Assembly: GCA_963764725.1 (NCBI GenBank)
Contig: CAVXTM010000007.1
Location: 1-64,000, forward strand
From: an uncultured Gammaproteobacteria bacterium
GTDB taxonomy: Bacteria > Pseudomonadota > Gammaproteobacteria > JACCXJ01
Direction of reading: 5' to 3'
Length of the DNA stretch: 64,000 bases
Below, one piece after another: positions 39,648-57,546 of this stretch. The notes below the pieces were generated by a model. That model was not told where the DNA came from. It did no database searches and saw nothing but the letters and a program-made list of their open reading frames with translations. Each line of letters opens with the position of its first letter. Within the stretch, counting starts at the first letter, position 1. A program made the translations under genes and the position numbers.

Positions 39648-39929
39648 GACTCAGACTCCCCTTTTATTCTTCCAAACCCACGGATCCACACTACGTCAAG
39701 AAGGAGCGGATATCAATAACGATCTATGCCCCGAGAAAATCCAGTGTGAGCTTATGAGTAAATCTATCCAAACATATTTGAAATGTCGGGTACACCTCCG
39801 AAGTCCCTCTCCTTCCCCGACAGGCACCGACTTGTGCAAGCCGCGCATGGTTTACAAAATAGACCGGGGCGCATGGTTTAGCAAATTCTTCTCCCTGTCC
39901 GTGCCATTGGCTGGGAGGGTCGATTGTTG

Positions 39930-40890
39930 CGCTGGTTTCGCTCATTGAGTACATCGCCAGAAGATGAAAGCTATAGCGTACTTCGCCACAGGAACTCGTG
40001 CAATCATGGTGCATGCCGATCGGTTCCTCGGCCAGCAATGTCTGAGACATAGAGCAGATGGCCTTTCCACTTGATTTCGCCATTATGTCGCACGGCCTTC
40101 GAGACCGGTCGACCTGCGAGTCGCGGCATACGCCACTGGCGGCAGCTTGCGTGGGATAACTCCTGGGCGAGGCCGTGTACCGTTCGACGAGGTGTTCGCC
40201 GTGCCGAGCGCTTCATGGCTACGCTCTGCGTTGTACTCGCTGACAAACGCGTTAAAGCGTTGCTGCTGGGCTTCGAGCGTCGCTGCAGGAGGCGCCACCG
40301 CGGCTTCTTTCAACGTGCCGATGCATGCGCTCATGTCGGCCATTAACGCGATCCGGCCGGCCAGGTTCCAATGCGCTCAGGGACGGATACCCAGCCGAGA
40401 TGCGCACCAGGCCGACAGCCGACTCAACCCACCCACGCGCCAGCGAGGCAAAGGGGGCGCCGTTGTGCGGTCCGTATAGCTTCCGGGGCAATCCGTACTC
40501 GCGCGAAACGACCCATTCGAGACCAAGGCTGGACCTCGGCCCACGTCGGTCGTGCCAGACGCTCGGCACTGCAAGAGGTAACGGCTGAAGTTGTCCGTCA
40601 TCGTCAGCGGGTAACAAGCGCGACGGCCGATCGCCCAGGCACAGAAATCGCCTTTGAAGTCCGCGGCTCGCAAAGGAGCATTGGCGCCGTCGCAGTCGGA
40701 GCAAGCGGCTCGCTGTGAGGCGCCACCCGCCGACGGCGGCGGACGCGGACCCACCAGACGCCGCCCGCTTCAGAATCTCACCCGCCGTGCTGTCGGCGGG
40801 CGCAAGCCACCGCGGGATCTGATCACGGCGCAACCCATCCATCACCTTCTTCGGCCCAAAACGTTGATGCCGCAGTTTGTACTGAGGGAG
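39930..40890 (-). pseudogene. Degraded IS481-family transposase
   Basis: FGPKK, ADFKG, CYPLTMTDNFSRYLL, EYGLP, NGAPFAS, NGRHERMHR, YNAERSHEAL and IKWKG are scattered over several frames; no HTH N-terminus. Confidence 0.85.
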
Positions 40891-41025
40891 AAGGGATTTC
40901 CAGATTTGTCGAAATCGGGCTGTGTAACATTGGCTGAGTGAAAATCTACTGCACATCCAGCAGCATTTGAGTGTCACGGGCATCGCTAGCGCATGATCGA
41001 ACGCCCCGCGTATACACTATAATCC

Positions 41026-41691
41026 ATGGACCCGATGGACCAAGGCATACGCTACCCGCCGAACCGGGTTCGTGACGCCTTGCATCGCGTGCTGTTCGGT
41101 CTCGTCGCGGCGCCGGGTCCCAGCTTTCAGGACTGGGTCTTACGCCATTTCTTCGAGCGTCTCTACCGGCGACCCAACCCCTGGTCTTACGAGGGTTCAG
41201 CGTATCAAAACCACAAATGCGGCCAGGCGCTCGCGCGGATCCCGCAGAACGCTTACGGGCGGGTGTTAGAGGTCGGGTGCGGGGAAGGGGCGTTCTCCGA
41301 GCGACTCCTCGCGGAGCGCGACGTGCGTGAGTTTATCGGCGTGGACATCTCCACGCGCGCGATCGACCGGGCAAAGAGCCGCTGTTCCCGGTACGAAAAC
41401 GCGCGCTTCCACGCGGACAACATCTTCTCGGCGCGTCTCCCGGCTAGGTTTGACCTGATCGTCGTCTGCGAGGTCCTCTACTACCTCGGCGGATCGGCGC
41501 CGGATCTCGCGGCGTTGCTCATCCCGATGCTGTCTCCCCGCGGCCGCTTGCTCTTGGTGCATCTTTGGCCCGAGGCCGAACAGTTGCACCGCGCTTTCCT
41601 TGCGAGTGGCGATCTGAGCGTGCTCGATGAGCTCGTCGATCGGCACAGCGTGCGGCCGTTCTGTGCTTCTCTACTGGGGAGGAACCCTTGA
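41026..41691 (+). CDS. Class I SAM methyltransferase, NodS-like
   Basis: LY..PNPW.Y..S.Y, LEVGCGEG, GVDIS and FDLIVVCEVLYYL motifs. Confidence 0.8.
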   Translation: MDPMDQGIRYPPNRVRDALHRVLFGLVAAPGPSFQDWVLRHFFERLYRRPNPWSYEGSAYQNHKCGQALARIPQNAYGRVLEVGCGEGAFSERLLAERDVREFIGVDISTRAIDRAKSRCSRYENARFHADNIFSARLPARFDLIVVCEVLYYLGGSAPDLAALLIPMLSPRGRLLLVHLWPEAEQLHRAFLASGDLSVLDELVDRHSVRPFCASLLGRNP

Positions 41692-41694
41692 AAT

Positions 41695-41812
41695 CTATTT
41701 CCCCGGCCTTGCCGCGGGCACCTTAGCGATGGGGTTTCCAAAGGGGAGAGGCGCACCTCTCCCCTTTGGTCGCCCCAGCAGGTTTATACCCCGTGGTGGC
41801 GAATTTAAGTTT
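41695..41812 (+). repeat. Three-hairpin intergenic repeat, copy A
   Basis: CTTGCCGCGGGCACCTTAGCGATGGGGTTTCCAAAGGGGAGAGGCGCACCTCTCCCCTTTGGTCGCCCC...ATACCCCGTGGTGGCGAA. Confidence 0.9.
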
Positions 41813-41830
41813 ACCCAAGCGCGATCGCGT

Positions 41831-42718
41831 TCAGTTTACCGCCTCCGCGGGCTTCGCCGCGGCGCCTTTCCTGATGGTGGCCACGGTAATGACAAGGATG
41901 CTCAGGAGCATTGCCCCGATACCGATTATTTTGATTGCGGGAAACTCTTCGCCAAACACACCGTAACCGGCCAACAAGGTCACCGGACGTTGGGTAATGA
42001 TCACCAAGGGCACACTGACCGAGACATCACCGTGCGCCAAGGCGATCTGCATGAAGATAAAGCCGATGAGGCTGAATACGACGATGAATAGAACAGGCCA
42101 GAGAGTGATAAACGCGCTGAGACTTTCCCACGACGTGATCGAAAAATAGCCGAGCTGCGAGGCGATCAGATTGGTATTCACCTTGAGAAAGATCTCCACG
42201 TTTCCGAAAGCGATCCCGGCGCAAGTGGCGAAATAGATTTCATGGATCGGGCGTTCGTCCCGCAACGCCCCCGCCACCAGAGCGATGATCGCGATCAATG
42301 ACAGCCCGGTGACGACACCTAGTGGAAATAGGTAGGTTTCGTGGCCTGTCGATGGATCGCTGACAAAAAGCAGGATGGCCGTACCCAAGATCGCAGTGAT
42401 CACACCGATCCATTGCTCCCGGGAGAGAATCTCCTGCAGGAACAGATAACCGAGGATCAAGGTAAAGACATAGGCAAAGTTCAGGAGCGGGTAGACCAGG
42501 GTGATATCCGCCAACGACTGGATCTCGATGATGATCAGGTTGGCAATTGCCCCCGCCAGCCAACCCGCGAGCCAGAACTTGTTGCGGATCGCGGCCCGAG
42601 CCTTTTGTTTCCAGCTCGCGCGCTGCGGCAGCTCACGTTGGAGCGCATACTTGCAAAGCACGGCGCTTGCCCCGTACAGGACGCAACAAAAGATCACGAT
42701 CGCTCCGTATAGAAACAT
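41831..42718 (-). CDS. EamA/DMT-family transporter
   Basis: About ten TM helices in two repeats; LFLQE.LS and VFGEEF motifs. Confidence 0.85.
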   Translation of the reverse strand: MFLYGAIVIFCCVLYGASAVLCKYALQRELPQRASWKQKARAAIRNKFWLAGWLAGAIANLIIIEIQSLADITLVYPLLNFAYVFTLILGYLFLQEILSREQWIGVITAILGTAILLFVSDPSTGHETYLFPLGVVTGLSLIAIIALVAGALRDERPIHEIYFATCAGIAFGNVEIFLKVNTNLIASQLGYFSITSWESLSAFITLWPVLFIVVFSLIGFIFMQIALAHGDVSVSVPLVIITQRPVTLLAGYGVFGEEFPAIKIIGIGAMLLSILVITVATIRKGAAAKPAEAVN

Positions 42719-42835
42719 TTATACTTCCGTTCCTTTGAGTCCGCGCGGACTGCGCAAGTGCTTAGCGGTTCGATGATGACACCAATCCGCGCCGATTGTA
42801 ACCCCGTAGGATAAAATCAGCGCTCAAGTGAGGCT

Positions 42836-45424
42836 GTGATGAAAAACGCTGCGGCCGCTGGCGTCGATACGACCGCCTTGGCCTACCAGGTCGGGAAGAA
42901 GCTCGCCGTGCACATCGGCGCGCTGGTGAGCCTGGCAATCGTCACGCTTGCCCTCTGGGTCTTGTATCACACCCTGCACGAGATCCGTCTCCGTGACGTC
43001 ATCAATAGTTTCAACGATCTCCCGGCTGCATCGATCCTCTTAGCGTTCCTGATCACCGCGGTCAGCTACCTCGTCGTCACCGGCTACGACGTCCTCGCAT
43101 TGCACCACCTTCAAAGGCCCTTACCGTACTGGCGCACAGCGCTCGCCTCGTTCCTCGCCTCGGCGTTTGGCAATAACGTTGGGTTCACCATGCTCACCGG
43201 CGGCTCGATAAGGTATCGGATCTATTCGCAAGCGGGGCTCTCGGCGATCGAGATCGCCGGCGTCACCACCATGTGCTCCCTGACCACCGTGATGGGGATG
43301 GTCTTTATCTTCGCGGTGTCGCTGCTGTTTGCGAGCGGGGACGTCAGCGACACCGCGCTTCAACTCCCGCCGGGCGTGCGCCGCTACGTGGGCTTTTCCA
43401 TCATGGCCGTGATAGTGGGGTACTTGATCGTGTCCGCCCTACGCCCGATCACTTTCACCACCGACAATTGGTCGCTGCGGCTCCCGACCGCCAAGACCGC
43501 CTTGGCGCAAGGCGGGCTGGCGACGCTCGACCTGCTGCTTGTCGGCACCCTGATTTATACCCTGCTGCCAACGCATGCGGGAACCGACTTTATTAGCTTT
43601 TTAGGCATCTTCGCGCTCGCCATGATGGCCGGTAGCATGAGCAACGTCCCGGGCGGCATCGGGGTGTTCGAGACCGTACTGCTGCTCGGTCTTCCCGAGA
43701 TCCCGCCCGCCGCGCTGCTAGGTTCCGTGCTCTTGTTCCGATGCGTATATTACCTCTCGCCCTTGAGCCTTGCGGCCATCCTGTTCGCCGCCTACGAGCT
43801 GGTCGTGCGGCGCGCCCGCATTCTTCGCATCCGCGGCGCCGCCACCGATTGGCTGGCGGAGATTGGTCCTCAGATCATGAGCGTAATTATCGTTTTCGCC
43901 GGCATCGTCCTGCTTTTTTCGGGCGCCATACCCACCTACGGCGAGCGCCTACGGATCCTGCATGACTCCGTGCCGCTTGGCATTGTCGAGATCGCCCATC
44001 TCGTCGCTAGCGCGGCGGGGATTGGGCTCATTATCCTCGCGCGCGGTATTTCCCGGCGCTTATCCAGGGCCTATGGTCTCTCGGCGCTACTACTCGGGCT
44101 CGGGATCCCAGCCGTCCTGCTTAAGGGCTTGGACTACCAGGAAGCCGTCATTCTCGCTACTGTCCTCATCGTGCTGCTACCCACGCGCAGGGAGTTTCAC
44201 CGTCACTCTTCTCTGTTTAGCCAGGGGTTTACCGTGGAATGGGTCTCCGCGCTAACGGCGATCCTAGCGGTCACGGTTTGGCTCGGGCTCTTCAATTTTA
44301 AGCATCTGATCTACTCGCACGAGCTTTGGTGGCAATTCGCCTACGATGCCGATCTGCCGCGCTTCCTGCGCGCTATGTTCCTCGTCTTCGGGATCACGAG
44401 CGGCGTCATGCTTTTTAACCTACTCCGCCCGGACCCGGTACCCGAGCCTCTACATGATCTCGACAAAGTCCGGCGTATCGTGCGAACAGACCCCGATACG
44501 CGGGCGAACATCGCCCTTCTCGGCGACAAGCGCTTGCTTTTCAGCCACTCAGGAAATGCCTTCATCATGTACCAGGTCCAAGGCAAGAGCTGGGTCGCCT
44601 TGGGGGACCCCGTAGGCGCGCCGGACGAGCGGTCGCAGTTGCTCTGGACCTACCGCGAGCTATGTGACCGCTACGGCGGCTGGGCCGTGTTTTACTTGGT
44701 GGATGCCGCCAACCTTTCCCTGTACGTCGACCTCGGACTCTCGCTCCTCAAGCTCGGGGATGAGGCTCGAGTGCGCTTGGATGAATTTTCACCCCTCAAC
44801 GTCGCCAGCGCCCAATTGCGTGAGATACACCGCGAGCTTCGCGAGCAAGGCATGCGTTTCGACATGGTGCGCTCCGCCGATGTCGCCCCGCTGCTCCCGG
44901 AGCTAAGAGAGGTCTCCGAGGCCTGGCTTCACGAAAAGCAAGCCCGTGAACAGGGCTTCTCTAAGGGATACTTCGACGAGAGTTACATTGGCCGGCTGCC
45001 CATCGCCGTGGTCCGCGCTGGGCAGCGCATCGTCGCCTTTGCTATCTTGTGGGCCAGCCGCAACAAAGAGGAACTGGCGCTTGACCTCATGCGTTACCAT
45101 CCCGATGCCCCGGCCGGGGTCATCGATTATCTCTTAGTCGAGCTCATGCTCGGCGGCAAGGCGCAAGCTTATCGCTGGTTCAACCTCGGGATCGCCCCGC
45201 TCTCAAACTTCGACGCACACCCCCTCGCGCCCCTTTGGCAACGTGTCGGTAAGCTCATGTACCGGCAGAGCGAGCACTTCCAGAACATCGAAAGCCTGCG
45301 CCGTTACGAAGAGAACTTCAAACCCGTATGGCGCCCAAAATACCTGGCCTCGCCGGGGGGCCTGAATCTGCCGAGGATCCTCCGGGACATCGGGCGCTTG
45401 ATCGCGGACGGTCAAAGGGTGTAG
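42836..45424 (+). CDS. mprF: Bifunctional aminoacyl-phosphatidylglycerol flippase/synthase
   Basis: GYD, GGSIRYRIYS and PGGIGVFE (flippase); ALLGDK, ALGDPVG, DLMR, FNLGIAPL and F.PVWRPKYL (synthase). Confidence 0.93.
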   Translation: MMKNAAAAGVDTTALAYQVGKKLAVHIGALVSLAIVTLALWVLYHTLHEIRLRDVINSFNDLPAASILLAFLITAVSYLVVTGYDVLALHHLQRPLPYWRTALASFLASAFGNNVGFTMLTGGSIRYRIYSQAGLSAIEIAGVTTMCSLTTVMGMVFIFAVSLLFASGDVSDTALQLPPGVRRYVGFSIMAVIVGYLIVSALRPITFTTDNWSLRLPTAKTALAQGGLATLDLLLVGTLIYTLLPTHAGTDFISFLGIFALAMMAGSMSNVPGGIGVFETVLLLGLPEIPPAALLGSVLLFRCVYYLSPLSLAAILFAAYELVVRRARILRIRGAATDWLAEIGPQIMSVIIVFAGIVLLFSGAIPTYGERLRILHDSVPLGIVEIAHLVASAAGIGLIILARGISRRLSRAYGLSALLLGLGIPAVLLKGLDYQEAVILATVLIVLLPTRREFHRHSSLFSQGFTVEWVSALTAILAVTVWLGLFNFKHLIYSHELWWQFAYDADLPRFLRAMFLVFGITSGVMLFNLLRPDPVPEPLHDLDKVRRIVRTDPDTRANIALLGDKRLLFSHSGNAFIMYQVQGKSWVALGDPVGAPDERSQLLWTYRELCDRYGGWAVFYLVDAANLSLYVDLGLSLLKLGDEARVRLDEFSPLNVASAQLREIHRELREQGMRFDMVRSADVAPLLPELREVSEAWLHEKQAREQGFSKGYFDESYIGRLPIAVVRAGQRIVAFAILWASRNKEELALDLMRYHPDAPAGVIDYLLVELMLGGKAQAYRWFNLGIAPLSNFDAHPLAPLWQRVGKLMYRQSEHFQNIESLRRYEENFKPVWRPKYLASPGGLNLPRILRDIGRLIADGQRV

Positions 45425-45442
45425 CCGGATGCTAGACCAGGC

Positions 45443-46571
45443 ATGAAAAACTACAAGATTGCGTTGGTGAGTGACTGGTACTATCCGCGGGTGGGCGGTA
45501 TCGAGTACGCGATCGACGCGCTGGGCCGCGGGCTTGTCACGCTTGGTCACGAGGTACACATTATCGCGCGGCTTTACGGCCGCGCCTCGGCGAGCGAGAC
45601 CAGCAATGGCCTACCGATCGTAAGGCTGGAGAGTTGCCCGCTATCGGAGTATCTCTTGTCTCCGCGGGGATATAGATCCCTGCGAGATATCTTGCGCGCA
45701 GGGGATTTCGATATCATTCATAGCCACGGCCTCGACTCGCCGATGGCGATGGTGTCTCTCACTATCGCCGCCAAGCTCGGGATCCCGAGCATTATCACCA
45801 GCCATTCGCTGCTGGGAGAGTCGCTTTCACAACGCGCCCTCTCATCGGGCGCAAAGGTTGTTCTCCGGCCTGCACAAGCGATCATCGCCGTAAGCTCTCC
45901 CGTCGAGCGCCAGGCACGGGCGATGTTCAGGGGTGCGGTCTTTCGCATCCCGAACGGTATCGATACGAACTCGCCCAACGGAGCGCTGCAACCCATCGCC
46001 CTGCCCCAAGGCCATGGGCCGGTCGTCGCCACAGTGGCGCGCATGAATAAACGCAAAGGCGTGCAGGATCTCATCACCGTCGCCACGATGTTAGTACCAA
46101 AAGCACCCGGATCTCCTGTTCCTTATGGTCGGCGATGGACCCCTGCGACTGCGGCTCGAACAAGGGATCCAGGCGTCAGGGCTCGGCCGGCATTTCCTGT
46201 TTACCGGTGGCGTTTCCCGCGCGACCGTGTTACACCTTCTGGGCCAGTCCGATGTCTTCGTCTCGCCTTCGCCGCGCGAGGCCTTCGGGATCTGCGTGCT
46301 CGAGGCGTTTCTGAAAAAGGTCCCGGTCGTGGCCCGCGGAAACACCGGGGTTTCAGACATCATTAGCCACCAGCAGACGGGCTTCCTTGCGGACGACGTG
46401 GCCGGCATTGCACACTATATTGATACGCTCATCCAGGACCCGGAACTGCGTTCGGCCGTCGCTCGCCGGGCTCACGAAGAGCTCGACAAATACCAGTGGA
46501 ACACGGTCGCCAGGCAGGTTGAGCAGGTTTATGCGCATGCCACTCGTGAAACGGGCCGTTATTTCGGTTGA
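45443..46571 (+). CDS. GT4 glycosyltransferase, PIG-A/archaeal GlcNAc-PI transferase-like; one frameshift
   Basis: KIALVSDWYYPRVGG, IIHSH, ITSHSL, IPNGID, KG, VGDGP and EAFGICVLEA. Removing one A from the run at ~46099-46102 joins ORFs 45443 and 46125. Confidence 0.85.
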
Positions 46572-47320
46572 TGTAGAGCAAGACTGTCCGCCATTCCTCG
46601 ATTCGATGCGCGGGGTCGAGGAGGGCTTGCCGCGGCTGTGCGCGATGTTCGCGGCCGAAAGCGTATCGGCAACGTTCTTTTCCACCGGCCGGATCGCCGA
46701 GCTATATCCGGAACGCATCAGGGATATCTGCGCCGGAGGCCATGAGCTGGGCGGTCACGGTTATTCACACCGGCGTTTCGATCACATGGAGAATGCAGAG
46801 GCAAGGACCGATCTGGCAAAGACGCGACAGGCGCTCGAGCCGTTCAATTCTCAGTTAACTTCCTTCCGTGCGCCCAATCTGCGACTGCCGGCACGCTATG
46901 TGTCTCTCCTCGGCGCCCACGGCTTCCATGTCGATTCATCGCTGGCCGCTTACAAACCCCCTTTCGCGCGCACAACCGTGGTCGCAAACGGCATCACACG
47001 CGTTCCTGTGTCCGTGACCTCCTCCGTACTGCGGCTGCCGCTACCACTCGTCAAGGCCGTGCTCGGGCGGGTGCGCGACCCGGTGCTGTTCGTGCACCCC
47101 TGGGAGTTCGTCGATATGTCGCGAGACGGGGATCCGCCTCGATTGCCGCTTCAATACGGGCGAGCCGGCGCTCGCAAACCTAAGTGCGATCATTCGCTGG
47201 CTCAAAGAGACCGGCTACCGATTCCTGACCTTAAGCGAGTTTGCCTCTCAGAGCCACGCGGGATGGATCAGAAGGGTAAGATACGCGAGCGTATCGCCGA
47301 GGCGCCGGCTTAAAGCGTAA
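46537..47320 (+). CDS. NodB-type polysaccharide deacetylase; one frameshift near 47130
   Basis: SVDVEQDCPP, ATFF, GHELGGHGYSH, SFRAP, DSS and HPWEF motifs; the tail IRLDCRFNTG...GYRFLTL lies in the next frame. Confidence 0.85.
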
Positions 47321-48003
47321 CCACGGCTCGCCAGCATCGCCTGGCACCGTTTGCGTTCCACTTGGCGCATATATTCGTGCTCATAAAGCAGCACCCGCGG
47401 CTGCCCGCTTTCAAAGTCTATCTGCCGGAGGATTTCGTGGTCGTGACCTTCGGTATCGATGCAGAGAACATCGACGCGGGTAACGGCATGTTTCCGCAGT
47501 AAGGAGCTCAAGGTCACGCAGTGCACGATCTCCTCGACAACGTAGCGGTCGAGGTCGGGGATCGCCCAGCGGTGGGACAGCAGTACCTCGCGATGAAAGC
47601 TCCCCAAGCCCGCGCACCACTGAGGTAAATACTCACAATCCTCCCGGATGCGAAACAACGCCCGTTGCTCTTCGCGGTGCGAAATAGCGGCGTTCTCAAA
47701 GATGAGATTCGGGTGAGCGCGATAATTTTCTTGGAGCCTTGCGAAATAACACCGCACCGGCTCGACCAATAGCCCCGGCCAGCGGTAACGCCGCACGTAG
47801 TGGTAGAGGGGATCGTAGATCACGCCGTCGTTGGCCCCGATCTGGATAAAAAACAAGTCCGGTATGGTAGCGGCGCAGTGGTCCATCACCTTGCGCAAGG
47901 TCGGCCACGGCGGCAATCGGCATAAGAGGTCGAATAGCTTGACGAGACCCAAGCGAAGCTTGAGCCGGGTGTCGAGCGGTGGCACGCTCAGGGCGGGCGG
48001 CAT
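47248..48003 (-). CDS. FkbM-family methyltransferase
   Basis: FIQIGANDG, LLVEP, ENAAIS and IDTEGHD motifs. Confidence 0.88.
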   Translation of the reverse strand: MPPALSVPPLDTRLKLRLGLVKLFDLLCRLPPWPTLRKVMDHCAATIPDLFFIQIGANDGVIYDPLYHYVRRYRWPGLLVEPVRCYFARLQENYRAHPNLIFENAAISHREEQRALFRIREDCEYLPQWCAGLGSFHREVLLSHRWAIPDLDRYVVEEIVHCVTLSSLLRKHAVTRVDVLCIDTEGHDHEILRQIDFESGQPRVLLYEHEYMRQVERKRCQAMLASRGYALSRRLGDTLAYLTLLIHPAWL

Positions 48004-48006
48004 GCG

Positions 48007-48672
48007 CTAAGCACGCGCAAGCAAGCTACGGTAGACCAGCAGCGTCCTTTGCCCGGCCGTCCACAGCGTCGCTAAGGCGAGAAGATAAATCACTTCGACC
48101 AAGAGGCCTGAGAGGAGACCAATGACCAGCAAGATCACCCGCTCCGGCCGAGTGACTAACCCTTCCGCGCATGCTATCCCCAAGATTTCCGCACGCGCCC
48201 GGACATAACTCGTCATCATCCCGCCGAACATCGCGATGAATACCGCCGCCGCGGCAAATCCGCGGCCTTCCTCCGCGAAGCGGTAGGCGATCGCTGCGAA
48301 CATGCTCGCTTCCCCAACGCGATCGAGGAGCGAATCGAGAAACCCGCCCAGTTCCGTCACTCGACCTGTGATCCGCGCGAGCATACCGTCGACCATATCG
48401 AACGAGCCGGCGCCCCAGAAAAGCAGACCGGCGGCCACTGGGTATCCAAGCAAGAATACCCAGCTCGCGACAATGGCCACCAGGCAACTGACGAGCGTCA
48501 CTTGGTTCGGCGACACGCCACAGCGGGCTAATCCGCGGGCGACCGCATCCGCCAAGGCGAGCACCCCGCGCTTCGGATAGCCGCCTATCAGAATAGCGAG
48601 CCGCCATCTTTTTGTGAGCGCCGAGATCATGGTTTCAGGCCAAACGTAATCGCAGGTGACAACTTCCTTCAC
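48007..48672 (-). CDS. CDP-alcohol phosphatidyltransferase, phosphatidylinositol-phosphate synthase type
   Basis: SPNQVT and DxxDGxxAR...GxxLDxxxDR, plus SYVRARAE and RPER typical of PIP/AIP synthases; immediately downstream of ino1. Confidence 0.85.
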   Translation of the reverse strand: MKEVVTCDYVWPETMISALTKRWRLAILIGGYPKRGVLALADAVARGLARCGVSPNQVTLVSCLVAIVASWVFLLGYPVAAGLLFWGAGSFDMVDGMLARITGRVTELGGFLDSLLDRVGEASMFAAIAYRFAEEGRGFAAAAVFIAMFGGMMTSYVRARAEILGIACAEGLVTRPERVILLVIGLLSGLLVEVIYLLALATLWTAGQRTLLVYRSLLARA

Positions 48673-48698
48673 GCTAGCGTGAAGGGCCGGCGGGATGC

Positions 48699-49859
48699 CT
48701 ATGCGATGGCCGCCGGGACCTCCCGCCGAGTCTGATCGGCAAGCTCATGGGGATCTCGAAAACCGCCTTTGATGAAGGCTTCCGTCATCCTAAAGGCCTC
48801 ATCGTCCTGAACCTGAAACGGCGGATGTTTGTAAAAAAAAGCCGAGGGCGCGTGCAACACCCCAGATTGACCTCGCTCCAGCGCCAGTTTGGCGCAACGA
48901 ATGGCGTCGATGGCGACCCCCGCAGAGTTCGGCGAGTCTTCCACCGACAGCCTTAACTCGATATTTACTGGGACATCCCCGAAGATCCGACCTTCCATGC
49001 GAACGAAACACACTTTGTTGTCTTTCTGCCACGGGACGAAGTCACTCGGGCCGATATGGATGTTCTCCTCGGACAATCTCTCCCCCGCGACCGATTGGAC
49101 CGCTTCGGTTTTGGAGCGTTTTTTCGATTTCACCCTTGCACGGTTCAGCATATTGAGGAAATCCGTATTACCGCCGGTATTGAGCTGGTAGGTGCGCTCC
49201 AGCTTCACGCCGCGTTTACGGAAGAGATCCGTGAGCACGCGGTGGGTAATGGTTGCCCCCAACTGGGATTTGATATCGTCGCCGATGAGCGGCAGCCGGG
49301 CTTCGTGAAAGCGGCGCGCCCATACCGGATCACTGGCGATGAAAACAGGAATATTATTGACCAAGGCCAAGCCCGCCTTCAAGGCGCAACCGGCATAAAA
49401 GCGTGTCGCGTCCTCGGAACCGACCGGCAGGTAATTGACCAGTATCTCGGCGCCTGACTCCGACAATGCGCGCACCACGTCTTCTTCGCTCGGCTCGGGC
49501 GCAAATGCGGTGACGAAGCTATGCCGCTCATCGTAATCGTGCATGTGCTCGGAAACCCCATCGAGCACACGGCCCATGCGCACCGTGACACCGGCTCTGG
49601 CGATGTCCCGATGAAACACCTGGGTACAGTTCGGCGGCGCAAAGATCGCTTGCGCGAGATCCTGGCCCACTTTACGCTTATCGATGTCGAAGGCCGCGAC
49701 AACCTCGAGATCCCGCGGGAGGTACCCGCCGATGTCCCAGTGCATTAAGCCGACGGCCTCCTCCGGATTTTTCTCCGCATAGTAATGAATACCCTGGATC
49801 AGCGAAGAGGCGCAATTTCCAATGCCCACCACTGCCAGCTTGACCTTTTTGTTGTTCAT
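48699..49859 (-). CDS. ino1: myo-Inositol-3-phosphate synthase
   Basis: GIGNCASSL, NYLPVGS, GDDIKSQ.GAT, QLNTGGNTDFLNM and EDSPNSAG motifs. Confidence 0.96.
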   Translation of the reverse strand: MNNKKVKLAVVGIGNCASSLIQGIHYYAEKNPEEAVGLMHWDIGGYLPRDLEVVAAFDIDKRKVGQDLAQAIFAPPNCTQVFHRDIARAGVTVRMGRVLDGVSEHMHDYDERHSFVTAFAPEPSEEDVVRALSESGAEILVNYLPVGSEDATRFYAGCALKAGLALVNNIPVFIASDPVWARRFHEARLPLIGDDIKSQLGATITHRVLTDLFRKRGVKLERTYQLNTGGNTDFLNMLNRARVKSKKRSKTEAVQSVAGERLSEENIHIGPSDFVPWQKDNKVCFVRMEGRIFGDVPVNIELRLSVEDSPNSAGVAIDAIRCAKLALERGQSGVLHAPSAFFYKHPPFQVQDDEAFRMTEAFIKGGFRDPHELADQTRREVPAAIA

Positions 49860-49954: not shown

Positions 49955-50068
49955 AATATACTGCGCGGGCAGGGTATTAACCCCGCCCTTGACCAAAGGG
50001 GAGAGTCGCGCTTCCCCTTCGGAAACCCCATCGCTAAGGTACCCGCGGCAAGACTGCGGGGTATGCGT
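49955..50068 (-). repeat. Three-hairpin intergenic repeat, copy C
   Basis: Reverse complement ATACCCCGCAGTCTTGCCGCGGGTACCTTAGCGATGGGGTTTCCGAAGGGGAAGCGCGACTCTCCCCTTTGGTCAAGGGCGGGGTTAATACCCTGCCC. Confidence 0.88.
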
Positions 50069-50110: not shown

Positions 50111-52246
50111 TCATGCGGCTCCTGGTTCTTTGCCGAGGGCCACCCCGGAGCGGCGCTCCTCTAGCATACGCTTGACGTAGTGCGCGGTTTCGGCCGCGGC
50201 GCGCTCCGGGCGCTTGCCATGGGCGTGGATACCGCAAACCGCGGTAGTGCAGGAATGATCGAGCCCTGGGTCCCACCGCGGGCGGCCCGCCGCATCGCGG
50301 CCATAGGTCAAGTAGGCGGAAAGTGTATCGAGACCGGTTCCGGGACGCTCCCCGATAAAATGCACGATCACGTCCGCACCGATCAAGGCGCCGATATGGT
50401 ATCCGGCCCGCACCCGCCCATCGGTCACGACGATATCGATATCGCCTAGGCGGCAATCGGCCAGGGCGTGCCTAAAGGCAGGCAGGACGGCGCGCAGGTT
50501 TTCGTTGACCGCGTTGGCATTGAGCCCATCGGAAATCACGACTTGCACCTGCGGCTTGCGAGACGGATAGAGGGAGCGCACGGCCGCGCTATCAACGCTC
50601 CGGATGCGTTCACCGGCGGCCGGATGGGCGATGTAATCGTCCCGATTTTCGGCCGCGGATCGCACCCGAAGACGGCGCGGACACACATCACCGACCACGG
50701 CATCTGCCAAGCTGGCGTAAAGCGCGTTACGGGCGTGGGTGTAGATCCCATCCAGCCGTGCCTGAACCTCGGGCGGCGCGGCATACGCTCCGGCATAGCC
50801 GTATCCGAGATCGAAGCCCTTTTGTTGCATTGCCGCAAGCCGCTTGCGTCCTTCCTCGCACAGCAATTCCCTGGCTCGGGTGTCGCCGCCGGCCTTGCGG
50901 TAGGACGCATACAGATCGACCGTAGCCTCGGCCGGCGGCCGGACAGCACCGGCCGCTGACATGACACCGAGATCGGTCAAACGCTTCCGCATCTCGGTCG
51001 TAATGCGGCCGCCGCATAACTCTCTCAAGCGCGGGTGTTGCCGGAATGACGTGGTCATATAACCCAGCATCGGATCCGCATTCCCGGCCACCGCCATCAG
51101 GTAGGCAGGGGCGGCCTCGGCGACGATGGACTGCGTCAGGCTGTGCAATTCTGCCGGGGCGACCCCCATGTGAAAAGTCGAGCAGACATCGAGGCCCATC
51201 GTCAACCCGTGGAGCTTCGCCATGACCGTGTCCTCGAGGCAGGTCCGGCGGAGCTGATCAGGGCTGCTAAAAACCTCGGGACCGATAAATCCGGCCACGT
51301 CGTTCACGATCATCCATGCGGGTCGATCCGGAAAACGCTTGCGTGACGCCTGTCCGATGGCCCTGGCGACGCCGTAGGTACGGGCTTCCAAAGTCACCAT
51401 GTCGACGCCTTCGGCGGCGCCGTTGGTAACCTCCGATCCCTGACCCGTCTCGAAATACAGGCCATCGAACCCGAACGCGAGATCGGCGATCCCACCGACA
51501 TCCAGCCCGACCATGCCGAGCAAGGCCTTGGACGTTCCCGCGAGGCTCTGAAACCCCACATCCACGCGAGTCCGCCGGCGCGCCTCGGTCTGCTTCACGA
51601 TATCGGAGAGCACGCAGTAGCGCGTCGGCAACTCCAGCCGATCCACCACGTTTTGCAGCAGACGTTCCAAGCGCACGATGGTCTCGACATCATCGCTCGC
51701 CGGGTTCAATCCTATGATCACATCGCCGCAGCCGTAGCACAGTCCTTCGAGGATAGAGAACAAGATCTCTTCTTCGTCATCGCCCGGGCTGTTGGGCTGG
51801 ATGCGCGCGCCGAAATGCTCCGACGCCCCGAGGGCGACGCCCTCTGCGGGCCCCGTAGCGGGCAGAGGATTAAACAAGCGCTTGGCGATATGAGAAAGGT
51901 CGGCATTGTCCATCAGCTTGACGACCGCCGCGATCATCTCGCTGCTCAAGCGCGCGCCATACTCACGGGCCCAGCGCGGCCCCGCGGGCGCCAATAAGCT
52001 ATCCTTAACCTGATTGAGCGTGAGACGTGCAATGTCACTGGGAACGGGCTTCAAGGTCCGCAACAGCGATTCGCTGAGGGCATCCTCGACCAGCACGGTC
52101 GCGGCCAGCGTCCGCAGCTTGACGGCGCCAAGTACCCGGCGAGCTTCCGAGCGTACGGCGTTATCACGGGTTCCGCCGACCAAAAGATCCCCTTCCTTGA
52201 AGTCATTCGCGAGGACGAAGAGTTTTTGCAGCGTTTGGCGATCCAC
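50111..52246 (-). CDS. Ethanolamine ammonia-lyase, fused large and small subunits (EutB-EutC)
   Basis: EutB motifs RIQPN, GDVIIGLNP, YFETGQGS, EARTYG and GFIGPE; EutC motifs VISDGLN, GRV and IGERPG...LSAYLTY, all in one 711-aa frame. Confidence 0.85.
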   Translation of the reverse strand: MDRQTLQKLFVLANDFKEGDLLVGGTRDNAVRSEARRVLGAVKLRTLAATVLVEDALSESLLRTLKPVPSDIARLTLNQVKDSLLAPAGPRWAREYGARLSSEMIAAVVKLMDNADLSHIAKRLFNPLPATGPAEGVALGASEHFGARIQPNSPGDDEEEILFSILEGLCYGCGDVIIGLNPASDDVETIVRLERLLQNVVDRLELPTRYCVLSDIVKQTEARRRTRVDVGFQSLAGTSKALLGMVGLDVGGIADLAFGFDGLYFETGQGSEVTNGAAEGVDMVTLEARTYGVARAIGQASRKRFPDRPAWMIVNDVAGFIGPEVFSSPDQLRRTCLEDTVMAKLHGLTMGLDVCSTFHMGVAPAELHSLTQSIVAEAAPAYLMAVAGNADPMLGYMTTSFRQHPRLRELCGGRITTEMRKRLTDLGVMSAAGAVRPPAEATVDLYASYRKAGGDTRARELLCEEGRKRLAAMQQKGFDLGYGYAGAYAAPPEVQARLDGIYTHARNALYASLADAVVGDVCPRRLRVRSAAENRDDYIAHPAAGERIRSVDSAAVRSLYPSRKPQVQVVISDGLNANAVNENLRAVLPAFRHALADCRLGDIDIVVTDGRVRAGYHIGALIGADVIVHFIGERPGTGLDTLSAYLTYGRDAAGRPRWDPGLDHSCTTAVCGIHAHGKRPERAAAETAHYVKRMLEERRSGVALGKEPGAA

Positions 52247-53890: not shown

Positions 53891-53957
53891 TCACAAAGGG
53901 ATAAGGTTTAATTTGGCATTCCCCCCGGCCTGTGTTCCAATTGAAGGGAGGTCCAGC

Positions 53958-55265
53958 ATGGAGGTCGCAATGGTATCTATTGCCGGAACCCGGCGGATAG
54001 CGCCGGGGGATGCTGAGGAGCCGCTGGCGTTTGCGCCGCGCTACGTTGCAGTGCGGCGCGCAACCGAAGAGTTGTGCCGGCCGCTTGCGACGGAAGATTA
54101 CGGGCTGCAGGCCATGGCGGATGCAAGCCCACCGAAGTGGCATCTGGCGCATACCACCTGGTTTTTCGAAACCTTCCTGCTAAAACCGTTTCTGCACGCT
54201 TATTCGGTTTTCCATCCGCGGTTTGAATATCTCTTCAACTCCTACTATCAAACGATCGGCGCGCAGTTTCCACGCACAGAGCGCGGTTTGTTATCCCGCC
54301 CCACGGTGGCAGAGGTCTATCGCTATCGCGCCCATGTGGACGCGGCCATGGCAGCGTTGCTGACGGAAGCAAGTGCAGACGATTTCGCCGAGGTCGCACG
54401 CCGCACGACACTCGGCTGTCATCACGAACAACAGCATCAGGAGTTGTTGCTCACCGACATCAAGTACAACTTCTCACTCAATCCGCTGCGCCCGGCCTAT
54501 CGCGCTGATTTGCCCGAAGCCCATAAACCGGGGCCCGCGCCATTGATTTGGATCGATTACCAGGGCGGTGTGCACGAGGTCGGCCACGCCGGTGCGGACT
54601 TCGCCTTCGATAACGAGCTGCCGCGGCACAGCGTGTATCTCCGGCCTTATGCGCTCGCTGCGCGGCTCGTCACCTGCGGAGAATACCTCGAATTCATCGC
54701 AGCCGGCGGTTACCGCCGCCCCGATCTCTGGCTCGCCGATGGTTGGCGCACGGCATGCGAGCGCGGTTGGCAGGCGCCGCTTTACTGGGAGCAGATCGAC
54801 GGGCGCTGGTGGCAGTTCACGCTTGCGGGAATGCGGTCGGTGAACGAGAACGAGCCGCTTTGTCATGTAAGCTTTTACGAAGCCGATGCCTACGCACGCT
54901 TTCTCGGCAAGCGTTTGCCGAGCGAGCAAGAGTGGGAAGTCGCCACCGGCGGATTACCGATTGCAGGCAACTTGCGCGACAGCGGTTATCTGCACCCGGT
55001 GCCGGCCGCGCCGGGCGCGTTGCCGCTGCAACGCTTTGGCGATGCATGGGAGTGGACGCAAAGCGCATATGCGCCGTATCCCGGCTATCGGCCGCCCGCA
55101 GGTGCGCTCGGCGAATATAACGGCAAGTTTATGGTGAACCAGATAGTGTTGCGCGGCGGCTCCTGCGCAACACCCGCGGATCACCTGCGCGCCACCTATC
55201 GCAACTTCTTCTATCCCGCGGATCGCTGGCAGTTCTCCGGCATACGCTTAGCGGAGGACAGATGA
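53958..55265 (+). CDS. egtB: Ergothioneine biosynthesis sulfoxide synthase
   Basis: DASPPKWHLAHTTWFFE, FNSYY, HEQQHQEL, GEYNGKFM and RWQFSG motifs. Confidence 0.95.
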   Translation: MEVAMVSIAGTRRIAPGDAEEPLAFAPRYVAVRRATEELCRPLATEDYGLQAMADASPPKWHLAHTTWFFETFLLKPFLHAYSVFHPRFEYLFNSYYQTIGAQFPRTERGLLSRPTVAEVYRYRAHVDAAMAALLTEASADDFAEVARRTTLGCHHEQQHQELLLTDIKYNFSLNPLRPAYRADLPEAHKPGPAPLIWIDYQGGVHEVGHAGADFAFDNELPRHSVYLRPYALAARLVTCGEYLEFIAAGGYRRPDLWLADGWRTACERGWQAPLYWEQIDGRWWQFTLAGMRSVNENEPLCHVSFYEADAYARFLGKRLPSEQEWEVATGGLPIAGNLRDSGYLHPVPAAPGALPLQRFGDAWEWTQSAYAPYPGYRPPAGALGEYNGKFMVNQIVLRGGSCATPADHLRATYRNFFYPADRWQFSGIRLAEDR

Positions 55266-56227
55266 AAATACAACCGGTACTTATCCACGGCGAGGCGCCG
55301 GAGAGTTCCGATTTTCGGTACAACGTGTTGCGCGGTTTGAGCGCACAACCGAAACACATTCCACCGAAGTTTTTTTACGATCGCCGTGGCTCGGCGCTTT
55401 TCGAGGATATCTGCCGTTTACCGGAGTATTACCTGACGCGCATCGAAACGGCCATTCTAAGTCGCTGCGCCCGCGAAATCGCGAAGCTTACCGGTCCCGA
55501 CAGCGTGCTAATCGAGCTTGGCAGCGGCGCAAGCCGCAAGGTGCGTCTGCTGCTAGAAACGCTGCGGCCGTCGGTTTACCTTGCGGTGGACATCTCGCGG
55601 GAATTCCTGCTCGATTCCACGCGCCGGCTTGCACGCGATTATCCATGGCTCGAAGTGCATGCTGCCTGCGCCGATTTGTGCACGCCGTTTTCGGTTACGG
55701 GCCTGCCGCAAGTGGGACGACGGCTTGCGTTCTATCCGGGATCGAGTATTGGCAACTTCGATCCGGACGAGGCACGCGCTTTACTGAGCGGCCTATGCCC
55801 GCTGCTCGGCCGCGACGGCGCGCTGGTGATTGGCGTGGATTCGAAGAAAGACCCGTCGATTCTGCACGCCGCTTACAACGACAGTGCCGGTATTACCGCA
55901 ATGTTCAATCTCAATCTGCTAGTGCGTCTGCGGCGCGAGTTACTCGCCGACGTTGATAGTGCAGCATTTGCGCACGCTGCGTTCTACAACCAAGCAGCCG
56001 GCCGCATCGAGATGCATCTGGTGAGTCTCCAAGCGCAACGCATTCGCGTTGACGGGGTGTCTTTCACGTTTGCGGAAGGGGAAACCATTCACACCGAAAG
56101 CTCCTACAAATACACGCCCGCCGAGTTCCACGCGCTCGCCGACACCGCCGGTTACAAGGTTGAGCGCACCTGGACCGATCCGGACCAGATGTTCAGCGTG
56201 TACTACCTGCGCGTGGCGACCTATTGA
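55262..56227 (+). CDS. egtD: L-histidine N-alpha-trimethyltransferase
   Basis: PKFFYD.RGS.LFE.IC.LPEYY, ELGSG, GSSIGN, AYND, IEMHL and HTESSYKY motifs. Confidence 0.95.
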   Translation: MKIQPVLIHGEAPESSDFRYNVLRGLSAQPKHIPPKFFYDRRGSALFEDICRLPEYYLTRIETAILSRCAREIAKLTGPDSVLIELGSGASRKVRLLLETLRPSVYLAVDISREFLLDSTRRLARDYPWLEVHAACADLCTPFSVTGLPQVGRRLAFYPGSSIGNFDPDEARALLSGLCPLLGRDGALVIGVDSKKDPSILHAAYNDSAGITAMFNLNLLVRLRRELLADVDSAAFAHAAFYNQAAGRIEMHLVSLQAQRIRVDGVSFTFAEGETIHTESSYKYTPAEFHALADTAGYKVERTWTDPDQMFSVYYLRVATY

Positions 56228-56280
56228 CCACCCGTCTATTACAGGAGCAACAGGCGCGGGTGCTTGACATCATTCTCAAA

Positions 56281-56398
56281 TTTATTCCCGCGGTCTTGCC
56301 GCGGGATCCTTAGCCATGGGGTTTCCAAAGGGGAGAGGCGCAGCTCTCCCCTTTGGTCGCCCCACGGGGTTCATACCCCGTGGTGGCGAAATCAAATT
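56281..56398 (+). repeat. Three-hairpin intergenic repeat, copy B (best paired)
   Basis: Stems CCCGCGG/CCGCGGG, CCAAAGGGGAGAG/CTCTCCCCTTTGG and CCACGGGG/CCCCGTGG. Confidence 0.9.
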
Positions 56399-56419: not shown

Positions 56420-57385
56420 TCATGGCCGGACGCGATCGAGCGCCTCGCGCCCGGCAAGCAACGCGGCGGCCAGTGAGAGCGGGACCAAGTGATAAACGGC
56501 GCGGTAGAGCAACAGCGCCGCCGTGAGAGATTCGGTCGAAATCAAGCTTTGAAAGCTCAGGAGCAAGATGCTCTCAAAGACGCCGAGCCCGCCCGGCACA
56601 TGGCTCACCATGCCCGCGAGCGTCGCGACCGAATAGACGGCGAGGAAGGCGATGAAGGGCACATCCGGTGCGTTCAATAGCACGTACAAGCACCCCCCGG
56701 CGAACACGATGTCCGCGAGGGTGAAGAACAACTGCGCCATCGCGATCCGCCCGCTCGGCAATCGAAACCGCCAACGGCCGATCGGCATCGGCGCGCGCCG
56801 GAAAAAGATCAGAACAGCCAAGGTCACGAACAGGGCTAATCCGGAGACGCCGAGGCCGTGCAATAGTCCAGGCGGAACCGGTAGAAAGCGGCCAATGAGA
56901 TCCGGGTGCAGGGTCAAAGCGGCCGCCCCCAGGACAAAGTTTCCGATCCCGTAGGCGACCATGCCAAAGAGGGTGACCTGGGCTACATCCAAGGTGCCGA
57001 GGCCGGCCGGGACATAGATACGGTAGCGCACCGAACCGCCCGAGACGATGTTGACGCCCACGGTATTGGCAATCGCGCAACCGCAGAAAGCCGCAAAGGC
57101 CACGGTGCGAAAGGCCACCGCCTGCCCGATGTAACGGAGCGCCGACCAGTCATAGCCGATGAGCACCGTGTAGCTCGCGGCCGTTAGTAAAAATGCGAGC
57201 CCCAATTGCCCGGGGGAAAGCTGCCGCACCTCGGCGAGCATGCGGTTGACATCCAGCTCTTGCAGAAGGTGATAGATTGCTGCGCTCGCGGCCAAAAACA
57301 GGGCGAGCGACAAGAGCGGCATGAGCACGCGCTGCCCGCGGTTCGGCGGCACCATCGCCCGCGCGATCTCATTGGCATCCGTCAT
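56420..57385 (-). CDS. Stand-alone MprF-type flippase domain (YbhN/UPF0104-like)
   Basis: GYD, GGSVRYRIY, HVPGGLGVFE and LLYRAVYHLVP motifs; no synthase domain. Confidence 0.85.
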   Translation of the reverse strand: MTDANEIARAMVPPNRGQRVLMPLLSLALFLAASAAIYHLLQELDVNRMLAEVRQLSPGQLGLAFLLTAASYTVLIGYDWSALRYIGQAVAFRTVAFAAFCGCAIANTVGVNIVSGGSVRYRIYVPAGLGTLDVAQVTLFGMVAYGIGNFVLGAAALTLHPDLIGRFLPVPPGLLHGLGVSGLALFVTLAVLIFFRRAPMPIGRWRFRLPSGRIAMAQLFFTLADIVFAGGCLYVLLNAPDVPFIAFLAVYSVATLAGMVSHVPGGLGVFESILLLSFQSLISTESLTAALLLYRAVYHLVPLSLAAALLAGREALDRVRP

Positions 57386-57546
57386 TGGGCGTCCATACTT
57401 ACTCTTTCGACTTTGATCTGAGACAATCGGGTTGATGCGGACATTATACATTTGTGGATCGATGAACTAGACGCGGATGGTGCATCAGGTCGCTGGGAAG
57501 TTGCCGCTCTGGTAGCCACGATACTAGTTCACCGCGGAGGCATGAC

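Follow-up and report, generated by a model that had tools for sequence, protein, structure and literature searches.

Does a gammaproteobacterium make the glucosaminyl-inositol lipid with which eukaryotes begin a glycosylphosphatidylinositol (GPI) anchor? The question is raised by a cluster of eight genes (Table 1) in a 64,000-nucleotide stretch of DNA from an uncultured gammaproteobacterium (GenBank assembly GCA_963764725.1, contig CAVXTM010000007.1, positions 1 to 64,000), which we call the window; the genome is designated G000. The cluster brings together myo-inositol-1-phosphate synthase (Ino1), a phosphatidylinositol-phosphate (PIP) synthase-type transferase (PIPS), a family 4 glycosyltransferase (GT4), a deacetylase and a full-length MprF, with FkbM-type and NodS-like methyltransferases and an EamA transporter. 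An earlier note, made from the letters alone, had read it as a route from phosphatidylinositol (PI) through N-acetylglucosaminyl-PI (GlcNAc-PI) to glucosaminyl-PI (GlcN-PI), a lipid which to our knowledge, and in the open-access literature, has not been described in bacteria. Our analysis favours a reading of this kind: we put at roughly 0.6 the probability that the cluster encodes a GPI-core-like aminoglycophospholipid pathway built on diacylglycerol.

In the proposed pathway, Ino1 would make inositol-1-phosphate, which the PIPS would join to CDP-diacylglycerol. A phosphatase from outside the cluster would then give PI; the single PgpA-family gene of G000 (C16:120528–120938) is a candidate, and the PIP phosphatase of Bacteroides is described as a PgpA-family protein (PMC9246714). 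The GT4, a soluble enzyme, would transfer GlcNAc from UDP-GlcNAc onto the inositol of PI, and a cytoplasmic deacetylase of the CE4 family would free the amine to give GlcN-PI. The two methyltransferases would methylate the head group (O- and/or N-), after which the flippase domain of MprF and/or EamA would move the lipid to the outer leaflet. In this way anionic PI would become zwitterionic or cationic, like lysyl-phosphatidylglycerol (Lys-PG), glucosaminyl-phosphatidylglycerol (GlcN-PG) and the aminoglycolipid of Clostridioides difficile. Gene identities, synteny, co-occurrence and phylogeny are what we observe, and every chemical step, the acceptor, the methylation sites and the flippase are predicted from them. 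The scheme would parallel steps 1 and 2 of eukaryotic GPI synthesis (PIG-A and PIG-L), carried out on the cytoplasmic face and followed by flipping. It differs from them in the fold of the deacetylase (CE4/NodB rather than LmbE/PIG-L), in the added methyltransferases and in having no known accessory subunits, and nothing in the cluster suggests mannosylation or protein anchoring.

Gene content, conservation and co-occurrence

Genes were called from open reading frames (ORFs) together with Pfam and NCBIfam profile searches of the window, and all eight genes listed in the earlier note were found where it had placed them, at 41026–49859. The spacing is operon-like: 18 nt separate mprF from the GT4 gene, the GT4 and deacetylase genes overlap by 41 nt, and the FkbM–PIPS and PIPS–ino1 gaps are 3 and 26 nt. 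The G+C content of the cluster (0.59–0.62) is similar to that of the flanking DNA. The set is also conserved together elsewhere, as the note had proposed to check. In a DNA search of 40 relatives, the cluster was found at approximately 87–96% nucleotide identity in 8/8 genomes of the genus, while the sister genus (g2) gave only partial matches of about 63–80% identity, of which the long ones cover mprF, and no match to the GT4 gene or ino1. Parts of the cluster recur in three more distant genomes (L021, L055 and G043). The clustering is thus not due to chance, because it recurs throughout the genus and partly in these three genomes. Results for G001, G005 and G008 (conservation and intact frames), G010/G043, G041/G159 and G042 rest on unpublished genomes; G003, G004 and G006 carry no unpublished flag.

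The distant genomes divide the cluster in an informative way. In L021 and L055 a GT4–deacetylase–FkbM operon lies among housekeeping genes, apart from ino1 and the PIPS gene, and G043 has the same uninterrupted ino1–PIPS–FkbM run as the window; the inositol half and the GT4–deacetylase half are linked through the FkbM gene. Another FkbM-family paralogue lies in G000 at C11:335766–336431 and shares 45% identity with the one in the cluster.

Table 1. Genes of the cluster and features near it in the window, with the profile matches on which the calls are based
Feature	Position	Strand	Evidence
NodS-like class I S-adenosylmethionine (SAM)-dependent methyltransferase	41026–41691	+	PF05401 63.4 bits (cut-off 24)
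EamA/DMT-family membrane transporter	41831–42718	-	PF00892 39 bits
Full-length MprF (flippase transmembrane domain and aminoacyl-phosphatidylglycerol synthase domain)	42836–45424	+	NF033480 845.5 bits (cut-off 600); PF09924 274.8 bits, PF03706 43 bits
GT4 glycosyltransferase, in two frames (45443–46366 and 46125–46571)	45443–46571	+	PF13439 95.6 bits and PF00534 83.5 bits, on the halves
Deacetylase, CE4 (NodB fold)	46531–47313	+	PF01522 59.2 bits
FkbM-family methyltransferase, ending the ino1–PIPS–FkbM operon	47248–48003	-	PF05050 58 bits
PIP-synthase-type CDP-alcohol phosphatidyltransferase (PIPS)	48007–48672	-	NF040950 (archaetidylinositol-phosphate synthase) 134.6 bits (cut-off 180); NF045883 (PIP synthase) 124.6 bits (cut-off 170)
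Myo-inositol-1-phosphate synthase (Ino1)	48699–49859	-	PF01658 124.1 bits (cut-off 27)
Region skipped in alignments to congeners	39720–40979		
ORF, 243 amino acids, inside the skipped region	40252–40983	-	no Pfam or NCBIfam match
Intergenic repeat	41686–41816, 49991–50052, 56278–56398		both-strand match, query positions 705–752
EutB and EutC fused in one 711-residue ORF	50111–52246	-	
egtB and egtD, overlapping pair	53913–56227	+	egtB: FGE-sulfatase and DinB_2; egtD: Methyltransf_33 360 bits
Stand-alone LPG_synthase_TM gene	56420–57451		

We then examined the co-occurrence of these genes in a class sample of 300 genomes from 271 genera (Ino1 was counted over 301). The GT4 is present in 2/300 (G000 and G159), PIPS in 5/300 and Ino1 in 20/301; both genomes with the GT4 also carry PIPS and Ino1. 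Four other bacterial genomes hold the GT4 and deacetylase. All four have Ino1 (58–75% identity) and three have a clear PIPS orthologue (47–59%), which was not found in the fourth, a fragmented deltaproteobacterial metagenome-assembled genome (MAG). A Myxococcales genome whose GT4 has no deacetylase also has neither Ino1 nor PIPS. Two genomes of the same family as G000 (G009 and G011, 97% complete) lack the GT4, PIPS, Ino1, the NodS-like methyltransferase and EamA. The association of the rare GT4–deacetylase pair with ino1 and PIP synthase, which the note had put forward as a check, is supported by these counts.

Inositol phospholipids are described as rare in bacteria (PMC9246714), in keeping with the 5/300 class genomes that carry PIPS. 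The two best NCBIfam models for the PIPS both score below their cut-offs (Table 1). Its catalytic motif, DX2DGX2AR...GX3DX3D (as given in PMC9246714), is present at residues 92–117; its relatives are bacterial and about 206 amino acids long, and its true start is probably some 15 codons inside the ORF. The higher-scoring model is the archaeal one. A recent archaeal origin of this gene was considered and rejected in view of its bacterial relatives. Ino1 scores 436.5 bits against the mycothiol-type model TIGR03450, below the cut-off of 638.

The cluster MprF scores above the cut-off of the bifunctional MprF equivalog. It occupies the position taken in archaea by a stand-alone flippase gene (see below), to which it has no homology at E ≤ 0.01, and a role in flipping or aminoacylating the lipid would be an analogy drawn from that position, since its adjacency to the GT4 gene is confined to the genus and G000 (4.2 Mb) holds four full-length MprF genes. 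The other three (C11:130348–132867, C1:75224–77767 and C16:361340–363835) share 59, 50 and 38% identity with the MprF of the cluster. MprF-like genes beside inositol genes do recur, since a lysyl-PG-synthase homologue adjoins both Bacteroidetes inositol-lipid clusters (PMC9246714). The window also holds a stand-alone LPG_synthase_TM gene, which resembles the transmembrane domain of MprF (35% identity) and not the archaeal flippase; with the four MprF genes it makes the lipid aminoacylation and flippase gene set of G000 unusually rich.

The NodS-like methyltransferase and EamA, which the note had placed alongside the pathway, share the rare distribution of the GT4: each occurs in 2/300 class genomes, the same two. 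Orthologues of both are found in G041, G042 and G043 (47–56% identity for the methyltransferase and 46–59% for EamA). In none of these three genomes does the methyltransferase gene adjoin the rest of the set, its neighbours in G041 and G042 being lexA and an ABC-3 permease gene; EamA adjoins mprF in G010/G043 too. The methyltransferase family is tiny, with 22 relatives at E ≤ 1e-20 among 5.8 billion proteins. It matches the broad family PF05401 and falls well below the NodS equivalog NF041650 (67.3 bits, cut-off 300). In rhizobia, NodB is a CE4 deacetylase that frees a glucosamine amine and NodS a SAM-dependent methyltransferase, and by analogy with that pair N-methylation of the freed amine is a candidate role here. 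The differences are that the deacetylase also falls below the NodB equivalog (40 bits, cut-off 240) and that a lipid head group would take the place of the chitooligosaccharide as substrate. A methyltransferase gene about 3 kb upstream of the GT4 gene in eight Methanosarcina loci was considered and set aside as generic UbiE-type, with a weak match (28–38%) to the NodS-like query.

The glycosyltransferase and deacetylase and their archaeal relatives

The GT4 has a GT-B fold, with a GT4 N-domain and a Glycos_transf_1 C-domain, and the two glutamates of its EX7E motif (E279 and E287) are invariant in the family alignment. The intact protein fits no curated equivalog, scoring 106 bits against a cut-off of 274 for BshA, 60.3 against 462.5 for MshA (TIGR03449) and 39.2 against 480 for GpgS (NF053787), the last matching the C-domain only. 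A search of the ESM Atlas returned only generic GT4 and BshA clusters. Beyond the genus, the closest relatives are metagenome proteins at 51–58% identity (among the 5.8 billion), and the named ones are archaeal: Methanomethylovorans hollandica (49%), Methanolobus vulcani (48%) and many Methanosarcina (43–47%), with E values of 1e-93 to 1e-108. When 185,579 species genomes were scanned with the family alignment, 92 stretches were confirmed, and 80 loci among them were retained. These are mostly from Methanosarcinaceae, Hydrothermarchaeota, Methanoperedens and Thermococci. The archaeal loci comprise Methanosarcinaceae, Methanococcoides, Hydrothermarchaeota and Methanoperedens (33–36%), with remoter ones (28–33%) in Thermococci, Sulfolobales, Thermoproteota and Nitrososphaerota. 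Bacterial loci are few: cave MAGs of the genus (Chromatiales/Gammaproteobacteria), three further gammaproteobacterial MAGs (L017, L021 and L055), and single deltaproteobacterial (L020), Myxococcales (L068) and Gemmatimonadales (L079) MAGs.

Members of this family, from Methanosarcina barkeri and M. acetivorans, were once proposed as the archaeal PIG-A (Oswal et al. 2008, PMC2446393), and this supports the note's view of the GT4 as PIG-A-like. Table 4 of that paper lists the motifs; CM1ar, which is described there as the most robust and as shared by every archaeal and eukaryotic PIG-A, was found in 16/16 of the family members tested and in 0/7 of the other GT4-like ORFs of G000. The Pfam PIGA family PF08288 matches 17/19 family members at E ≤ 0.01. 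Within G000 it matches this GT4 only, at a borderline 26.4 bits (27.7 with neighbours) against a cut-off of 27.

The deacetylase gene accompanies the GT4 gene closely. Among loci with at least 40% GT4 identity, it lies downstream of the GT4 gene, usually overlapping it, in 9/9 bacterial loci that have downstream sequence, and it adjoins the GT4 gene in 38/42 archaeal loci; in L059 it is 460 nt from the best GT4 segment. The deacetylase is 46–54% identical between archaea and bacteria, and GT4 and deacetylase are 41–54% identical to the adjacent pair found throughout Methanosarcinaceae, including a M. barkeri MAG. Invariant motifs are D.E.DCPP, HE.G.HG..H, SFRAP, HPWE and a C-terminal R.DC..TG..AL. 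No signal peptide was found at the N-terminus, and the protein is a candidate cytoplasmic GlcNAc-PI de-N-acetylase. It matches PF01522 (CE4) and not the LmbE fold (PF02585); it would thus be an analogue, not a homologue, of PIG-L.

In the archaea, the unit is a flippase–GT4–deacetylase operon. At Methanosarcina loci, a stand-alone LPG_synthase_TM gene (325–361 amino acids, corresponding to the flippase half of MprF) lies directly upstream of the GT4 gene, its end overlapping the GT4 start by about 21 nt; such a gene precedes the GT4 gene in 44/44 archaeal core loci (at least 40% identity) and in the deltaproteobacterial locus L020. The locus of the M. barkeri MAG (L038) carries the complete triad. 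This is the setting of a reported ether phospholipid of M. barkeri with the head group of a GPI anchor (PMC2446393), and we suggest that the orthologous operon would make this glucosaminyl archaetidylinositol. The cluster differs from the archaeal system: its lipid backbone would be diacylglycerol rather than archaeol, and a bacterial full-length MprF stands in the flippase position, with FkbM, the NodS-like methyltransferase and EamA as bacterial additions. MIPS (myo-inositol-1-phosphate synthase) and a gene resembling archaetidylinositol-phosphate (AIP) synthase were present in 5/5 archaeal genomes checked. The four Methanosarcina loci without an adjacent deacetylase gene (L019, L024, L043 and L057) form two subclades, and L043 has a small CMD-family ORF after the GT4 gene; these organisms may make an N-acetylated lipid, or may encode the deacetylase elsewhere.

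The same three-part architecture is known from two bacterial systems. GpgSDF of Pseudomonas aeruginosa makes GlcN-PG: a GT4 attaches GlcNAc to the head group of a phospholipid, the amine is freed by a deacetylase in the cytoplasm, and the operon also has a gene for an MprF-type (UPF0104) flippase (PMC12713373); in that description its deacetylase GpgD is of the COG3233 type, its acceptor is phosphatidylglycerol (PG), and its genes are not linked to inositol genes. HexSDF of C. difficile makes an aminohexosyl-hexosyl-diradylglycerol, a presumed cationic amino-sugar lipid that lowers surface charge, and differs in its glycolipid acceptor and its Gram-positive host (PMC10128005). The mprF–GT4–deacetylase order in the window has this architecture, the comparison with HexSDF being one of gene arrangement. 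The parallel with HexSDF drawn in the earlier note extends further than it had proposed, since the archaeal orthologous pair is itself preceded by an MprF-type flippase gene.

A tree was built from 39 GT4 sequences of this family, with the Thermococci, Sulfolobales and Nitrososphaerota rows serving as the outgroup for the root. One clade (starred, support 100/99) holds 20 archaeal rows (Methanosarcinaceae, Hydrothermarchaeota and unclassified Methanobacteriota MAGs) and seven bacterial ones, with no resolved order inside it. The bacterial rows form three groups: the genus with L017 (98/97), L021 with L055, and L020. A single bacterial clade inside this core is not rejected (p-AU 0.286). Outside it lie Methanoperedens and, on long branches, a Myxococcales/Gemmatimonadales pair. 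Most likely, judging from these sequences, the GT4–deacetylase pair was acquired from archaea, in one or more transfers; this is the simpler reading because archaea occupy the deeper branches of the tree as rooted here. Only the pair looks transferred, because the relatives of the PIPS are bacterial. Co-transfer of the archaeal flippase was considered and rejected, as G000 contains no homologue of it at E ≤ 0.01. Elsewhere in the tree, two Sulfolobales rows (MAGs L081 and L090) are nested in the Thermococci rows with starred support, which hints at inter-phylum transfer among archaea.

Reading frames and flanking DNA

The earlier note had suspected frameshifts in the GT4 and deacetylase genes, and both are present. 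Three single-base insertions are private to G000 and absent in 5/5 aligned congeners: at 46103 in the middle of the GT4 gene, at 47122 in the deacetylase gene, and at 47280 in the 3′ end of the FkbM gene. The second falls directly after the conserved HPWEFVDMS and garbles the last 50 or so residues of the deacetylase, whose congener genes end near 47251; the third alters approximately the last ten codons of FkbM. In congeners the GT4 is one intact ORF (375 amino acids in L002, 387 in L004).

Read evidence was taken from contigs of four runs from four studies. These represent related populations and not the source, because even the best run contains just 0.32 of the sequence words of the stretch. 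Wherever a gap was called, the contigs of all four runs are without the inserted base. At 47280, the depth without the base was 91.6/91.6, 130.1/130.1, 52.3/52.3 and 521/571.6 in the four runs; at 47122 (or 47124) it was the whole depth in all four; and at 46103 (or 46097) it was 23/52.9, 773.2/773.2 and 22.1/46.7, with no depth in run X5.

These data bear on whether the GT4 and deacetylase genes are pseudogenes in this strain, the insertions being real and only PI (and aminoacyl-PG) being made. We rate this at slightly short of an even chance; it is a statement about how the genes stand in G000, and a GlcN-PI pathway in the genus would be consistent with it. In its favour, the insertions are private to G000 among both the congeners and the run contigs, none of them lengthens a homopolymer, and all three fall inside 1.2 kb. 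Moreover, frame-breaking indels private to G000 are absent from mprF, a histidine kinase gene, eutBC and ino1, which together span about 8.5 kb (about 22 kb aligned, three or four congeners). Real decay or a local assembly fault thus fit better than evenly spread sequencing noise. Against it, a local fault of assembly or polishing would look identical, the best run matches only that 0.32 of the words, and the rest of both genes is stop-free and about 90% identical to the intact copies. The pathway may therefore be dead in this strain, because the GT4, deacetylase and FkbM genes carry 1-bp insertions, and intact in its congeners. A further supposed sign of assembly error, in cysS, was rejected: the reported stop lies upstream of the gene start, and cysS is intact.

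The flanking DNA has some features of its own (Table 1). A repeat of about 120 bp that contains a palindrome lies between genes at three places in the window, in many copies elsewhere in G000 (C10, C11, C16 and C18) and in every congener at 84–93% identity, resembling repetitive extragenic palindromes or miniature inverted-repeat transposable elements. Upstream of the cluster, a region of about 1.2 kb that contains an ORF lacking profile matches is present in G000 and skipped in alignments to congeners L011, L013 and L014. Downstream, the large and small subunits of ethanolamine ammonia-lyase are fused, and the ergothioneine genes egtB and egtD overlap.

Alternative explanations and significance

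The route from PI to GlcN-PI set out in the earlier note thus stands in part. The gene set is conserved, and the pair co-occurs with ino1 and PIPS; the deacetylase is not a PIG-L homologue, and the role proposed for MprF is read from its position. Several further findings count against the GlcN-PI pathway. The gammaproteobacterial GT4s match only three or four of the ten strict PIG-A motifs, where the M. barkeri MAG L038 matches eight, and 3/10 is a weak PIG-A signature. PF08288 also matches, below cut-off, in 6/14 control genomes, including Escherichia coli. A PDB search with the GT4 profile gave no PIG-A chain at E ≤ 1e-10 and does not discriminate between acceptors, because its best matches are BshA (5d00) and PimA (2gej). 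The adjacency of mprF to the GT4 gene is seen in this genus only, and the architecture of the triad does not fix the acceptor, because GpgSDF acts on PG and HexSDF on a glycolipid. No PIP phosphatase gene lies within the cluster, as the note had remarked, and in G000 itself both GT4 and deacetylase are frame-shifted. The bacterial co-occurrence rests on about four lineages, because GT4 genomes are few and some may be related. On the archaeal side, the four Methanosarcina loci named above have the flippase and GT4 genes without an adjacent deacetylase gene, neither ino1 nor AIP synthase lies within 10 kb of the triads, and the co-occurrence with MIPS and AIP-synthase-like genes says little because inositol lipids are common in archaea. 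In the open-access literature we found no paper linking the archaeal triad genes to glucosaminyl archaetidylinositol, and no biochemical data on this GT4 family in any organism.

The most substantial alternative is that the cluster is a juxtaposition of independent modules, in which Ino1 and PIPS (with or without FkbM) would make PI or a methylated inositol lipid, the GT4 and deacetylase would make GlcN-PG or an amino-sugar glycolipid, and MprF would make and flip aminoacyl-PG. We consider this unlikely, though it has real support: the known triads do act on PG (PMC12713373) or a glycolipid, MprF scores as a regular bifunctional enzyme, the archaeal triads are unlinked to ino1 or AIP synthase, and in L021 and L055 the GT4–deacetylase–FkbM operon is distant from ino1 and PIPS. 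Against such a division, the GT4 scores far below the GpgS equivalog and the deacetylase is a PF01522 protein, not of the COG3233 type of GpgD; of the bacterial genomes with the pair, 4/4 carry Ino1 and 3/4 carry PIPS, against 20/301 and 5/300 in the class; FkbM is attached to either half in different genomes; and the closest relatives of the pair belong to an archaeal family known for a GlcN-inositol lipid.

It is a good deal less probable that the product is soluble, the GT4 and deacetylase acting on inositol phosphate and yielding glucosaminyl-inositol that would serve in a thiol of the mycothiol type or as a compatible solute. MshA/MshB and BshA/BshB do resemble the pair in using a GT4 with UDP-GlcNAc and then a deacetylase on the product, and the top match in both the PDB and NCBIfam is BshA. 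The substrates of MshA, itself a GT4, are moreover inositol-1-phosphate and UDP-GlcNAc (PMC7278568), the best NCBIfam model for the Ino1 of the cluster is the mycothiol-type one, and the ergothioneine genes lie 4 kb away. These systems differ in that their products are soluble and their deacetylases LmbE-type, and the GT4 of the cluster scores far under both cut-offs. G000 has no MshC (the best TIGR03447 match, at 304.9 bits against a cut-off of 485.1, is the housekeeping cysS) and no match to BshC, ino1 and FkbM are separated by a PIP synthase gene, and the archaeal and deltaproteobacterial operons encode a membrane protein of lipid-flippase type. We give even less credence to a surface glycan, that is, to the pair building and partly deacetylating an exopolysaccharide- or poly-N-acetylglucosamine-like glycan with a coincidental link to inositol. 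The best NCBIfam match of the deacetylase is an XrtA-system polysaccharide deacetylase (70.5 bits, cut-off 276), and the GT4 halves weakly match exopolysaccharide glycosyltransferase models. All these scores are far below their cut-offs, however; there is no gene for a polymerase, for export or for chain length; the deacetylase is without a signal peptide; and the two-gene unit has been kept across domains with a flippase-type gene and co-occurs with ino1 and PIPS.

We therefore retain the GPI-core-like pathway on diacylglycerol as our preferred reading. A broader proposal, which is tentative and which we place just under even odds, joins the bacterial and archaeal halves of the argument: cave and soil Gammaproteobacteria would make methylated GlcN-PI, the core of the GPI anchor, by means of an archaeal-derived pair, and the operon of Methanosarcinales would be the pathway to glucosaminyl archaetidylinositol, with UPF0104 as a dedicated flippase for GlcN-inositol lipids.

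If the proposed pathway is correct, GlcN-PI would be the third charge-masking amino-sugar phospholipid of bacteria, beside GlcN-PG and the aminoglycolipid of C. difficile, and the triad would supply candidates for the genes with which methanogens make glucosaminyl archaetidylinositol. It would also imply that a module for a membrane-lipid head group has likely passed from archaea to bacteria. Finally, it would offer a simple and genetically tractable prokaryotic counterpart of the first two steps of GPI synthesis and of the flipping that follows, present in two domains of life and equipped with a candidate flippase.

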